Shown here: in pieces, positions 15,846-18,797 of the stretch
Layout of the letters: each line of letters starts with the position of its first letter
Position numbering within the stretch: the stretch's first letter is position 1
IMG/VR virus record: IMGVR_UViG_2609460344_000022
Origin: a virus
Taxonomy: Duplodnaviria > Heunggongvirae > Uroviricota > Caudoviricetes
DNA: 40,873 nucleotides
Direction: 5' to 3' (one strand)
Notes under the pieces: generated by a model
Database searches by the model: none
Seen by the model: only the letters and a program-made list of their open reading frames with translations
What the model was told of the DNA's origin: nothing
Program-made: the position numbers and the translations under genes

Positions 15846-16486
15846 GTAAATTAGCTATCAGGCTTCAATTGTCGCTGGCATTCGCATCAAAGGAGAATGA
15901 GATGACCACTTTTACAAAAGAGCAGTTAATCAGTCATGTTAGTGAAAATGTAAAGGCGATGAAATTTGCAGTAAAACAGACAGCATTCAAAAATTCTCTC
16001 GAGGCAATTGAGTTGGATTTAGCACTGGCCCTTGTTGCTCAGGCTTCGCTGGAAGCAGAGCCCGTGCTTTATATGAATCGATTTACCGGAAAGACATTCT
16101 CACTGGAAGAGCAACCCGGTGCTGATAAGGAACCGGAAATATACGTGCCGCTATATGCTGCCCCGCCAGACAGCGCCGCCATGCTTCAGGCTGGAAACTT
16201 TCGGGAAAAGAAGGGTTCGTCAACCAATAATTTTCGGGAAATCTCGGAAACGTCAACCAACCATCCGGTAACTCTGGATGGTTGGATAAGCTGTAGTGAG
16301 CGAATGCCGGATGACGGTCAGCACGTAATTATTTTATGTGATGGCGCATTCGTTCTTTATGCGCAATATCGAGACGGTGAGTTTTTTGATGTAGTCCGTG
16401 ATGGTGATGAATTTTTCGAAACACAGAGCCGCAATGTAACCGACTGGATGCCGCTACCAGAACCGCCGCAGGAGGTGCGCCAATGA
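15842..16486 (+). CDS. DUF551-like phage protein
   Basis: 214 aa; C-terminal 'DGWISCSERMPDDGQ...WMPLPEPP' resembles DUF551 domain common in nin regions. Confidence 0.55.
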   Translation: MSKLAIRLQLSLAFASKENEMTTFTKEQLISHVSENVKAMKFAVKQTAFKNSLEAIELDLALALVAQASLEAEPVLYMNRFTGKTFSLEEQPGADKEPEIYVPLYAAPPDSAAMLQAGNFREKKGSSTNNFREISETSTNHPVTLDGWISCSERMPDDGQHVIILCDGAFVLYAQYRDGEFFDVVRDGDEFFETQSRNVTDWMPLPEPPQEVRQ

Positions 16487-16566
16487 ACTGGCCTGAAGCA
16501 TTTGCAATTACAGGCGTTGCTATGGCTATCACTTTTTTAGTATATGTTATTTGTCGGTGGGGGTAA
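16483..16566 (+). CDS. Small hydrophobic peptide (27 aa)
   Basis: ATGA overlap with upstream stop, GGAGG SD 7 nt upstream; MNWPEAFAITGVAMAITFLVYVICRWG; below ORF-track cutoff. Confidence 0.4.
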   Translation: MNWPEAFAITGVAMAITFLVYVICRWG

Positions 16567-16601
16567 AAACGTTCGCCGGGATTAACACCAAAGGAGGGAA
16601 T

Positions 16602-16706
16602 ATGTCGGATGATATATCACTGGCAATGGAAGGTGCGCTGGCTGTTATTGCTGTTGTGGGCGTTTACTGCCTGGTTGTGTTTTTGATGGATCGACTAGGG
16701 AACTGA
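16602..16706 (+). CDS. Small hydrophobic peptide (34 aa)
   Basis: AAGGAGGG SD 5 nt upstream of ATG; MSDDISLAMEGALAVIAVVGVYCLVVFLMDRLGN; single predicted TM helix. Confidence 0.45.
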   Translation: MSDDISLAMEGALAVIAVVGVYCLVVFLMDRLGN

Positions 16707-16951
16707 ATTCATTACGATATGGGAATTCCCATATCGGGTAAAAACGGTTTGCGGTAAAGCGAGAGTTAAGTAGAATTGCTGCGGGTGCTTGAGGCTGTCT
16801 GCCTCGGGCATGCCACCGTAAGGCAGACAGAGAAAAACCCCAGTTAACATTACGCGTCCTGCAAGACGCCTAACATTAATCTGAGGCCAATTTCATGCTA
16901 GACACATGTAGGTTAGCCTCTTACGCGCCGAAAGGCAAGGAGAAGCAGGCT

Positions 16952-17107
16952 ATGAAGCAGCAAAAGGCGATGTTAGTCGCCCTGATCGTCATCTGTATTA
17001 CCGTCGTAGTGACGGCACTGGTAACGAGGAAAGACCTCTGCGAGGTACGAATCCGAACCGGTCAGACGGAGGTTGCTGTCTTCACAGCTTACGAACCTGA
17101 GGAGTAA
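16952..17107 (+). CDS. hok: Hok/Gef-family type I toxin
   Basis: 51 aa, MKQQKAMLVALIVICITVVVTALVTRKDLCEVRIRTGQTEVAVFTAYEPEE closely resembles recalled Hok (…[25 protein letters not shown]…); AAGGAG SD; 5' and 3' UTR segments are mutually complementary. Confidence 0.85.
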   Translation: MKQQKAMLVALIVICITVVVTALVTRKDLCEVRIRTGQTEVAVFTAYEPEE

Positions 17108-17175
17108 GAGACCAGGCGAGGGAGAAATCCCTCGCCACCTCTGATGTGTCAGGCATCCTCAACGCACCCGCACTT

Positions 17176-17197
17176 AACCCGCTTCGGCGGGTTTTTT
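17176..17197 (+). terminator. Intrinsic terminator of hok mRNA
   Basis: AACCCGCTTCGGCGGGTT hairpin + TTTTT; an identical hairpin recurs at 18016-18036. Confidence 0.6.
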
Positions 17198-17316
17198 CAC
17201 TTACTGTGGTTGTGAATACGATTGGTATTAGGCTATGCTAACAACATTAGCCTGACTAATTTTGTATTGACTTGATTTTTGTTAAAGAACAGGACGGAGA
17301 AGTAAGGGTACACCCA

Positions 17317-17496
17317 ATGAGCTACGCACTAAAAAAACACCCGCGATTGACTATTCCCCCTCGCGATAAAAGCGTTGTGGCAGCTCCGCGCCCGGCTATC
17401 GATGAAAATTGCACTCATCGTGAGCAGGTGAAAAATGCTTTCGATTTCGGTTTTTCTCGTTACGAGAAGGCAATGGAAGAACTTTCAAAAGTGTAA
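17317..17496 (+). CDS. Putative antitoxin partner of Doc-like toxin (59 aa)
   Basis: Small ORF with GGAG/AAGGG SD, ending 18 nt before Doc-like gene; no recognized family. Confidence 0.4.
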   Translation: MSYALKKHPRLTIPPRDKSVVAAPRPAIDENCTHREQVKNAFDFGFSRYEKAMEELSKV

Positions 17497-17514
17497 TGAT
17501 GGGTATTGTGCTCT

Positions 17515-18000
17515 ATGGCTGATATTGTTGAAGGAGTGCACTACCTTTCGTTTGATGATCTTACCGAAATTAATCGCCTTTTAATTGAGCTTCAAACACC
17601 AGATGAACCTGTTAGTGTGCTGAGTGTTGATAATTTAAGTTCTTCTCAGTCTCGTCCCAGCATGGTTCGATGGTATGAACAGACTAATGACATGTTTGTA
17701 CTGGCATCAGTATTGATTGAAAGTCTGATTCAGAATCATCCATTTGCTAATGCAAACAAACGAACAGCTATGATGGCTGGTTATGTCTTCTTGTTGTTGA
17801 ATGGCTATGAGTTAACAGCACCAGGCGATGAAATCGTGGAAATGGCAGAGGGACTGGCCTGCAAAACCTATACTCGAGAAGATCTCGAGAACTGGTTGTG
17901 TTATTGGTCTCGTGCGTATGACGGCCGGGAATTATGTAAAACAGGCGCAACTGTTGTTTTGTATGAAACTATCAAGCTTAAAATAGAACAGCAAAACTAA
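17515..18000 (+). CDS. doc: Doc/Fic-family toxin
   Basis: 161 aa; motif HPFANANKRTAMMAG matches the Doc-type Fic motif HxFx(D/N)ANKR. Confidence 0.75.
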   Translation: MADIVEGVHYLSFDDLTEINRLLIELQTPDEPVSVLSVDNLSSSQSRPSMVRWYEQTNDMFVLASVLIESLIQNHPFANANKRTAMMAGYVFLLLNGYELTAPGDEIVEMAEGLACKTYTREDLENWLCYWSRAYDGRELCKTGATVVLYETIKLKIEQQN

Positions 18001-18050
18001 AGGTGCTTCTAATGAAAACCCGCTTCGGCGGGTTTTGTTGTATTGGAGTA

Positions 18051-18368
18051 TCATGATATTACCTGGATTCCGTTTTTCTCTACGACTGAAAGAAGGCGAA
18101 GAGCGGCACCTCCCGGCCGTTTTACACCACGTTCCCAGTCTGATATCAGGTTTTTACTGACGTTGAGGTATCTGGCAAAAACAGGTTGAGACAGATGCTC
18201 TCGTTCGCGCAGTGCACGGATCCTTTCCGGAGACATTACCGGCGCTGGCTGGAGACAAGTTTCATCGAATTCTCGCATAGTCTGTTTCGTTACTGCGCCG
18301 ATATCATGAAGCGATTCCATCATTTCATGTACGGATGCAAGCGCATCACTGCGGTAATTTTTACTCAT
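18051..18368 (-). CDS. HTH (XRE-type) antitoxin, HigA/MqsA-like C-terminal HTH
   Basis: 105 aa; C-terminal 'REREHLSQPVFARYLNVSKNLISDWERGVKRPGGAALRLL' resembles the antitoxin HTH pattern; start ATG overlaps stop of upstream toxin remnant. Confidence 0.6.
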   Translation of the reverse strand: MSKNYRSDALASVHEMMESLHDIGAVTKQTMREFDETCLQPAPVMSPERIRALREREHLSQPVFARYLNVSKNLISDWERGVKRPGGAALRLLSVVEKNGIQVIS

Positions 18369-18730
18369 TGGGTACCTCCGTAAACTGACCCTGTAGAATC
18401 AGTTGTGCCAGTTGTTCATCTGTTAGATTGAGTACGTGAGGAGCCCCTTCCGAAATGCACTTTCCTCAGTAGCGGTTATATTTTCACGTTCATTTTTTGC
18501 GTATGCATATACGAAAAAGGCCCTTGTGCCGACGCGATAGAAAATGATTGTGCGATAACCGCCAGATTTGCCGCCACCGACTCGTGGCAGACGTTGCTTG
18601 ATAACGCCGTTACCCAGGTTTGCTGAGATAAGCCCGTTATCAGCCTGTTTAACAATTTCGCGCAGTGATTGGTCGGATATTTTGTTTTGCGTGCAAATCG
18701 CTCAAACCAGGCGTTTTTAAAAATGCGCAT
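18361..18730 (-). pseudogene. RelE/ParE-superfamily toxin disrupted by two frameshifts
   Basis: Frame 1: MRIFKNAWFERFARK; frame 2: ...SLREIVKQADNGLISANLGNGVIKQRLPRVGGGKSGGYRTIIFYRVGTRAFFVYAYAKNERENI...; frame 3: LNLTDEQLAQLILQGQFTEVPNE*; first shift at an A-rich tract (GCACGCAAAACAAAATAT). Confidence 0.6.
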
Positions 18731-18797
18731 TTTTTGTTCCGTTATTAATGTATAACACATAGTGTTACATTGCGTAGGGATCTGCAATGCCATCAGT

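Follow-up and report, generated by a model that had tools for sequence, protein, structure and literature searches.

Background

Toxin-antitoxin (TA) genes carried by prophages, and phage intervals that accumulate cargo, provide the closest described counterparts of the locus reported here. The hokW-sokW locus of Sp5 is a working type I TA system that assists phage release, which is halved without it (PMC8621323), and the paaA2-parE2 module in the lambdoid prophage CP-933P is addictive (PMC8630535). We analyzed a TA cargo cluster (positions 16483-18793) in a 40,873-nucleotide (nt) stretch of viral DNA, IMG/VR record IMGVR_UViG_2609460344_000022, which is a lambdoid (lambda-like) Escherichia coli prophage and is referred to below, at its full length, as the window. 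The cluster comprises two micro-protein genes (mini27 and mini34), a hok/mok/sok locus, a Doc-type toxin gene with a small upstream partner (orf59), and a pair resembling HigB-2/HigA-2. Its organization is like that of morons and of the terminator-rich lambda nin region, where autonomous units with their own terminators lie between conserved phage genes, and like that of the P2/P4 defence hot spots in having variable cargo between conserved flanks (PMC3594210, PMC9122126). Unlike the P2/P4 hot spots, its cargo consists of TA modules and not of recognised defence systems, and turnover is documented in one lambdoid lineage only.

Each module can be set beside a described relative. The hok locus agrees with hokW/mokW/sokW of 933W/Sp5 in the overlap of mok and hok and in the position of sok; the 933W locus, however, sits near the attR end and not in the nin region, and it has no mini34 insert, no UUCG hairpin at the equivalent point, and no Doc gene downstream. 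With Phd-Doc of P1 and of E. faecalis (9vzc), the Doc module shares a Fic-fold toxin, the H-x-F-x-N-A-N-K-R motif, and a small upstream gene ending in a C-terminal helix, whereas its toxin, at 161 amino acids (aa), has a C-terminal extension and resembles P1 Doc weakly (1.2e-4). The third pair has the toxin-first order of V. cholerae HigB-2/HigA-2 and an antitoxin like the roughly 104-aa HigA-2 with its C-terminal helix-turn-helix (HTH), but the toxin is a pseudogene whose similarity to HigB-2 is marginal (3e-3). Finally, in the relB-relE-hokD group of the K-12 cryptic prophage Qin, a RelE-family module likewise adjoins a hok-family locus between the immunity/replication side and Q. There hokD, which is not known to have a sok/mok region of its own, lies 3' of relBE in the same orientation, whereas the window has a complete hok with sok and mok, paired with Doc, and a RelE-type pair of a different family (PF06296, HigB-2-like) that is encoded on the opposite strand and whose toxin is dead. 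The components of the island are all of known kinds, and most are already named in RefSeq annotation; a literature search found no publication on orf59-Doc, the two micro-proteins, or this island.

A lineage-specific cargo slot upstream of ninB

We read the stretch as a mosaic of self-contained cargo modules in the early-right operon, in which hok/sok and orf59-Doc would act as addiction modules and the slot would serve as a cargo-exchange point of its lineage. We consider this reading probable, though with real reserve. It draws first on a comparison of IMG/VR loci anchored on NinB at 92-100% identity (80 loci; a NinB scan of reference genomes gave eight, too few for the purpose). Among 29 loci (28 plus the copy in E. 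coli FORC_069) that have both the replication module and the NinB of the window, the slot between the DUF977 gene and ninB had ten different contents, so the cargo turnover that the initial annotation had anticipated across related prophages is borne out. Immediately 5' of the isrK/C4 promoter, and divergent from it, three RelE-superfamily pairs alternate: the PF06296 toxin with an HTH partner (decayed in the window, intact in sister loci L041 and L044), a Gp49 (PF05973) toxin with an HTH partner, and HigB (PF05015), the latter two abutting the same promoter in sister loci. Sister loci become homologous precisely from the -35 TTGAC of the isrK promoter onward, and the variable TA cargo abuts this -35 box. 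The swapping of RelE-family pairs beside the isrK promoter is a modest new point. Sister loci also have a DUF4145 protein and a membrane protein of the DUF805 family as cargo, and modules are present or absent among otherwise related phages.

The same slot gave one minor observation. The DUF4145 protein of the sister prophages (248 aa; phrog_1305, 'DNA binding protein') lies beside DUF977 at 4353-5099 (minus strand) in L027, is also found in L030, L031, L032, L036, and L037, and gives a marginal match to the PADLOC model PD-T7-4 (0.0026).

Across lineages the picture is narrower. In a set of 78 loci, made up of the IMG/VR set and a few reference-genome loci (NinB 68-91% identical) and having NinB at 91-100% in most cases, the 3 kb 5' of ninB showed 44 architectures, and known toxin families occurred only in the lineage with the replicon and the isrK-antirepressor module of the window. 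A universal toxin hot spot between P and ninB was accordingly rejected: about 30 of the architectures have lambda O/P or DnaB-type replicons, and no known toxin family was found in them. The cargo hot spot is real but specific to one lineage. The earlier proposal of a dedicated accessory hot spot is therefore upheld as to turnover, alternating RelE pairs, and a recurring hok+Doc cassette, but must be narrowed, as toxin enrichment is confined to one lineage and the search for PADLOC defence models gave no significant match.

The second line of evidence is that cassette. Of 5426 genomes, 125 contain the Doc unit, in every case on the chromosome, and a combined hok+Doc query was covered to at least 80% in 120 of these 125 E. 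coli genomes. The cassette recurs in three other prophage backbones, likewise between replication and Q-proximal genes, and their homology to the window ends right after the second of two hairpins described below. From this pattern of co-occurrence, hok and Doc are seen to move as one 1.3-kb cassette, a linkage that is itself a modest new point. The genes hok, orf59, and Doc are intact in the window and in most of the 125 genomes. The larger island is rarer: about 34 complete E. coli genomes, FORC_069 and strains of the O104:H4 outbreak lineage among them, have chromosomal prophages that match positions 16400-18900 at 99.3-99.8% identity, and at least 80% of this interval is carried by only 34 of the 5426.

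An intact hok/mok/sok locus

The hok/mok/sok type I locus occupies 16748-17199 on the plus strand. It encodes hok itself (16952-17107, plus strand; PF01848 5.6e-24, phrog_251 1.8e-32) and mok, a 70-aa open reading frame (ORF; 16895-17107, plus strand) that contains hok in frame, in the layout annotated for mokW. The sok region (16783-16957) matches Rfam RF01794 over its full length (model positions 1-157) with 110 bits against a gathering score of 59. A putative hok promoter, TTTGCG-17-TAGAAT (16748-16776, plus strand), was read from the sequence and is conserved with 933W; the hok mRNA would run from about 16780 to 17199 on the plus strand and end in a terminator at 17176-17199. The predicted mRNA folds back 5' to 3' (tac-fbi), its minimum free energy structure pairing nt 5-13 with the 3' GCACCCGCA stretch (z -7.6), and the fold ends in the terminator. 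From mini27 through hok, the DNA is 92% identical to hokW/sokW of 933W/Sp5, for which toxicity of Hok and repression by Sok have been shown (PMC8621323), and in several thousand E. coli genomes the hok homology stops exactly at the end of the hairpin. By these features the locus has all hallmarks of its family and is complete, in agreement with the hok locus reported by the initial annotation.

A Doc toxin with a candidate non-Phd antitoxin

The Doc module noted earlier was likewise recovered, with a Doc-type Fic toxin of 161 aa (17515-18000, plus strand; PF02661 3e-11, phrog_577 1e-50) and a 59-aa ORF upstream. Against PDB chains, the toxin matched E. faecalis Doc (9vzc) at 1.1e-12 and P1 Doc at 1.2e-4. 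Its motif HPFANANKR aligns to HIFNDANKR of P1 Doc and fits HxFx(D/N)(A/G)NKR, with the motif columns invariant in the alignment; the P1 Doc sequence used here is corroborated by the PDB alignment. Doc is conserved at the codon level across about 10% DNA divergence.

The upstream gene, orf59 (17317-17496, plus strand), is a candidate Doc antitoxin. It matches phrog_2208 (unknown function) at 2.7e-42 and has no Pfam match and no match to Phd/YefM. Its homologues lie directly 5' of a Fic/Doc gene of 159-168 aa in all seven other, unrelated contexts examined: three other E. coli prophage backbones, the Pseudomonas phages Sirocco and LPPA56 (57-59% identity), an Ewingella prophage with the pair set among its tail genes and a near-identical hairpin closing the module, and one further contig where it lies beside dinI and umuDC. 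An AlphaFold2 model built with 13 homologues has a helix at residues 34-57 (block-mean predicted local distance difference test score 83-92) and no regular structure, that is, disorder, over residues 1-33. Because of the conserved pairing with Doc and this structure model, we read orf59 as probably the Doc antitoxin, acting through its C-terminal helix as Phd does. It is not a member of the Phd family, as the model predicts no DNA-binding domain of the Phd/YefM type, and the module is Phd-Doc-like in layout only. A candidate non-Phd antitoxin family for Doc is a modest new point, and it would fill an annotation gap, since phrog_2208, now annotated as "hypothetical," probably represents the antitoxins of a Doc subfamily that is widespread and phage-borne.

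A damaged relative was seen in the Salmonella phage SW-37 (L218, 2687-3550), where orf59-Doc homologues at about 70% identity are broken into several frames and followed by the same hairpin; no hok was seen upstream of them.

A decayed RelE-type toxin with an intact antitoxin

The RelE remnant with antitoxin described by the initial annotation was found as well, the toxin with two frameshifts and the antitoxin intact. The toxin-first, HigBA-like pair lies on the minus strand. Its HigA-2-like antitoxin (18051-18368, minus strand; 105 aa) is intact and has a C-terminal HTH (PF01381 1e-7; phrog_2104 3e-43), and it matches V. cholerae HigA-2 structures at 7.9e-8 over residues 45-99. The RelE-family (PF06296), HigB-2-like toxin is a pseudogene at about 18361-18730 (minus strand) with two 1-bp deletions, near 18689 and 18446, as established by three-frame translation and alignment to the FORC_069 copy (L001) and to the intact copy of L041. 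One of the deletions is shared with FORC_069, and the other was not seen in either of these two copies. The intact L041 orthologue matches PF06296 at 6.7e-46 and HigB-2 structures weakly (3e-3). A palindrome read from the sequence, TAACAC-ATA-GTGTTA (18753-18767), lies 5' of the toxin start and is a candidate operator of the HigBA-like operon.

Two conserved membrane micro-protein genes

Two hydrophobic mini-ORFs of 27 and 34 aa with strong Shine-Dalgarno sequences had been pointed out, and both are present, at 16483-16566 and 16602-16706 (plus strand); we found no evidence that either is toxic, as their listing among growth-inhibiting cargo implied. Each is predicted to encode a single-pass membrane micro-protein with one strongly hydrophobic 19-residue window (best hydropathy value for mini27, 2.32), and neither had a meaningful family match in Pfam, PHROG, or PADLOC. 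The mini27 gene has GGAGG 6-7 nt 5' of its start, and its ATG and the stop codon of the DUF551 gene overlap as ATGA, an arrangement that points to translational coupling. Scanning IMG/VR with a DNA pattern yielded 96 loci with usable flanks; the motif stood in the ORF context of mini27 in 79 of these, which together with the window made 80 sequences. The ATGA overlap is retained in all 80, including those with a different upstream sequence, and the W-P-E-A-F-A ... I-C-R-W-G frame is kept throughout. The 19 peptide variants include 16 of 27 aa (64 of the 80 copies), the other three having 24, 25, or 29 aa, and a crude ratio of non-synonymous to synonymous polymorphism came to 0.45 for the mini27 frame, compared with 1.0-1.2 for the other frames. 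Among the 80 sequences, 56 have hok 3' of mini27.

The mini34 gene, preceded by AAAGGAGGGAATATG as a very strong Shine-Dalgarno sequence, corresponds to the RefSeq hypothetical protein WP_001278450. It is less variable than mini27, with 13 synonymous against seven non-synonymous sites, the latter conservative. It lies in an insert of about 175 bp with the imperfect repeat GGTAAAAACGKTTYGCSGG on both sides (16562-16579 and 16737-16754); 49 of the 80 mini27 sequences carry this insert, and in 933W, which is without it, mini27 leads straight into the hok promoter region. The insert also holds a perfect 22-nt palindrome, CGATATGGGAATTCCCATATCG (16715-16736), which was read from the sequence and is placed after the mini34 stop and before the hok promoter; as neither strand has a T-run, the palindrome is put forward as a candidate protein-binding site. 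Promoter-like matches antisense to the mini-ORFs (9/12 matches, at 16626-16599 and 16567-16539) were dismissed as chance, the regional count being eight against 6.6 ± 2.8 in shuffles.

By their substitution patterns and preserved context, mini27 and mini34 are real, conserved genes for small membrane proteins under purifying selection, largely overlooked by gene callers. They count among the modest new points. As they are coupled to an early gene, induced cells rather than lysogens are the likelier setting for their expression. A related observation concerns other lambdoid prophages with O/P or DnaB-type replicons (L047-L091), whose 3 kb 5' of ninB often hold other ORFs, 54-64 aa long and strongly hydrophobic, just upstream of ninB. 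It may be that this interval generally carries membrane micro-proteins.

Terminator hairpins

The 18-mer hairpin AACCCGCTTCGGCGGGTT occurs exactly twice, at 17176-17193 and 18017-18034, against a chance expectation of 0.03 in shuffled sequence, and both copies score as intrinsic terminators. The second belongs to a UUCG-tetraloop terminator (18015-18040) between the convergent Doc and antitoxin genes and shares a 20-mer with the hok terminator. The elements listed in the initial annotation were all located where it had placed them, except that this second hairpin starts at 18017 and not at 18016. Its description of an island flanked by the same hairpin holds as to the two identical copies, but these close the hok unit and the Doc unit and do not mark the island border; the 841-bp Doc unit has a direct copy of the 20-mer on either side. 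Between 15.8 and 21.5 kb there are four UUCG-loop terminators, the other two (19743 and 21359) following the two antirepressor genes.

The exact 20-mer was found at 121 sampled IMG/VR sites and also in K-12 hokD. Because 90 of the 121 sites have no hok upstream and each of these has a different flank, with 31-67% G+C, the 20-mer is best read as a generic, convergently recurring strong terminator, and the identity of the two copies carries little weight. The hairpin as an island boundary or duplication scar was rejected as a firm conclusion, the exact 20-mer being generic in unrelated phages. In two loci (L134 1807-3174 and L296 334-1701), a different two-gene cassette lies 3' of hok between two exact 20-mer copies 1348 bp apart; in L134 it encodes a 119-aa HTH protein and a 158-aa ImmA/IrrE-like HExxH protein.

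Proposed mechanism and alternative explanations

If the stretch is a mosaic of cargo modules, its parts would work as follows. The micro-protein genes would be translationally embedded in the early operon, which would be read with the help of the N-type antiterminator. The hok/sok and orf59-Doc modules would each pair an unstable antidote (Sok RNA or orf59 protein) with a stable toxin, Hok being expected to act as a membrane-active peptide and Doc as a kinase that blocks EF-Tu. As addiction modules independent of each other, they would penalise loss or rearrangement of the prophage segment, and a shutdown of host transcription, whether by an infecting phage or by prophage induction, may also set them off. 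For the orphan HigA-2-like antitoxin, a possible role is the neutralisation of related toxins that come in from outside. The early-right operon would be permissive for terminator-bearing cargo, tolerating the hok and Doc terminators because the phage encodes N. Terminators in the early-right operon are a classical property of the lambda nin region, where N-modified polymerase reads through them. The anti-phage and stabilising roles raised by the initial annotation may apply here by extension from what these families do elsewhere.

Several observations weigh against this interpretation. One of the three toxins, the RelE-type one, is dead in the window. No function is known for the mini-ORFs, whose expression is probably limited to the time after induction. 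A promoter search for orf59-Doc gave a best sigma-70 match of 8/12 and none that was convincing, and the count of promoter-like sites across the region was not above that of shuffled controls. No island protein had a significant match to a PADLOC defence model, the only matches being marginal or to generic HTH domains. Some sister copies are damaged: hok is interrupted by IS3 in L092, it carries a stop codon in L093, and Doc is frameshifted in SW-37. Such damage fits selfish, decaying passengers as well as it fits selected function. The concentration of growth-inhibiting cargo that had been proposed accordingly stands for the hok, Doc, and HigBA-like modules, but is tempered by the dead toxin and by the broken hok or Doc genes of sister copies.

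That damage is central to the alternative that survives best, which we regard as possible yet clearly the lesser candidate. The modules could be purely selfish passengers, with no selected benefit to prophage or host, that persist and hitch-hike because they are addictive and the stretch is insertion-tolerant; the cluster would then be a zone of accumulation and decay. The RelE pseudogene with its two frameshifts, the hok copies lost to IS3 and to a stop codon, the frameshifted orf59-Doc of SW-37, and the restriction of the full island to 34 of 5426 genomes are all as expected of passengers. Decay without selection accords less well with the intact hok, orf59, and Doc of the window and of most of the 125 genomes, with the codon-level conservation of Doc across about 10% DNA divergence, and with the measured effect of hokW on phage release (PMC8621323).

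We think it unlikely that the cluster is a dedicated anti-phage defence island, in which the shut-off of host gene expression by an incoming phage would release the toxins as abortive-infection effectors. Variable cargo between conserved flanks is found in defence hot spots too, and sister loci hold further candidate cargo (the DUF4145 protein and the HTH plus ImmA/IrrE-like pair). Reports that T4-like phages are excluded by hok/sok and by several type II systems also speak for a defence island. The absence of significant PADLOC matches for island proteins and the confinement of toxins to one lineage of the slot argue the other way.

Improbable, too, is a set of induction or lysis helpers, in which Hok, and perhaps both micro-proteins, would hasten phage release by damaging the membrane once the prophage is induced, as reported for hokW-sokW in Sp5. 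The 92% DNA identity to the hokW locus, the halved release without hokW-sokW (PMC8621323), and the position of mini27, coupled to an early gene and 5' of hok in 56 of the 80 sampled sequences, agree with such a role; Doc and the HigBA-like pair do not suit it, the 933W locus lies elsewhere in its genome, and the reported hokW effect is modest.

Least credible is a hairpin that serves as a cassette-capture site, with modules entering 3' of hok by recombination at the 20-bp hairpin and so leaving the 841-bp Doc unit bracketed: the direct repeat on both sides of that unit, the end of homology between contexts at the second copy, the other two-gene cassette between copies 1348 bp apart in L134 and L296, and the near-identical hairpin ending the Ewingella Doc module speak for it, but the exact 20-mer is generic (90 of 121 sites without hok, all flanks different), so that identity may arise by convergence, only two cassette types were seen, and no recombinase is linked to the hairpin. 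We attach just as little belief to an extended version in which mini27, and perhaps mini34, would be functional partners of hok, modulating Hok or acting as new small toxins, and the hok terminator would be a capture site for two-gene cassettes, the hok locus thereby nucleating toxin clusters.

Current understanding of TA biology is unchanged by these findings. The joint hok+Doc cassette and the swapping of RelE-type pairs nevertheless make a compact natural system in which to ask whether prophage TA modules stabilise the prophage, exclude phages, or help induction.

Genomic setting of the cluster

Gene order in the window was derived from Pfam and PHROG matches and from RefSeq annotation of the near-identical FORC_069 copy. 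On the minus strand lie the integrase (1-1164), an N-type antiterminator (8049-8432), a eukaryote-type Ser/Thr kinase (9098-10144; Pkinase 2.2e-46), a DUF3024 gene (10667-11008), and the S24 repressor (11069-11773). They are followed on the plus strand by cII (12259-12555), a DnaD-like initiator (12809-13891), an IstB/DnaC-like ATPase (13898-14638), and the DUF1627, DUF977, and DUF551 genes (14664-16486). The TA cluster comes next, 3' of the initiator and the ATPase and 5' of NinB, which agrees with its earlier placement between the replication and nin genes. Beyond it are an isrK/C4-like RNA with an ORF6N antirepressor (18798-19762, plus strand), ninB (19793-20203, plus strand) and then ninE, a second isrK/C4-antirepressor unit (20383-21380), and, downstream of that, a KilAC antirepressor, RusA, NinH, and Q.

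The unit at 18798-19762 has a near-consensus promoter (11/12), an isrK/C4-like RNA, an ORF6N/P22AR antirepressor, and a terminator, as judged by Rfam matches (isrK, C4, and c4-a1b1) and Pfam matches (ORF6N and P22_AR_C). It and the unit at 20383-21380 are paralogous and stand on either side of ninB-ninE, each with a near-consensus promoter, a1b1 target sites, an isrK/C4-like RNA, an ORF6N/P22AR antirepressor, and a UUCG-loop terminator. These units resemble immI of P1 (c4-ant) and the isrK-anrP locus of Gifsy-1, the latter of which controls a toxic anti-terminator (PMC4825925).

Three further observations were made in the window. The Ser/Thr kinase and DUF3024 genes, lying between the N-type antiterminator and the cI-like repressor, constitute a second cargo position of the prophage. 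The DUF551 gene contains an imperfect 33-nt tandem duplication at 16196-16260, reflected in the peptides NFREKKGSSTN and NFREISETSTN. Downstream of the Q gene, a full-length match to the small RNA STnc100 (165 bits) lies at 23746-23951.

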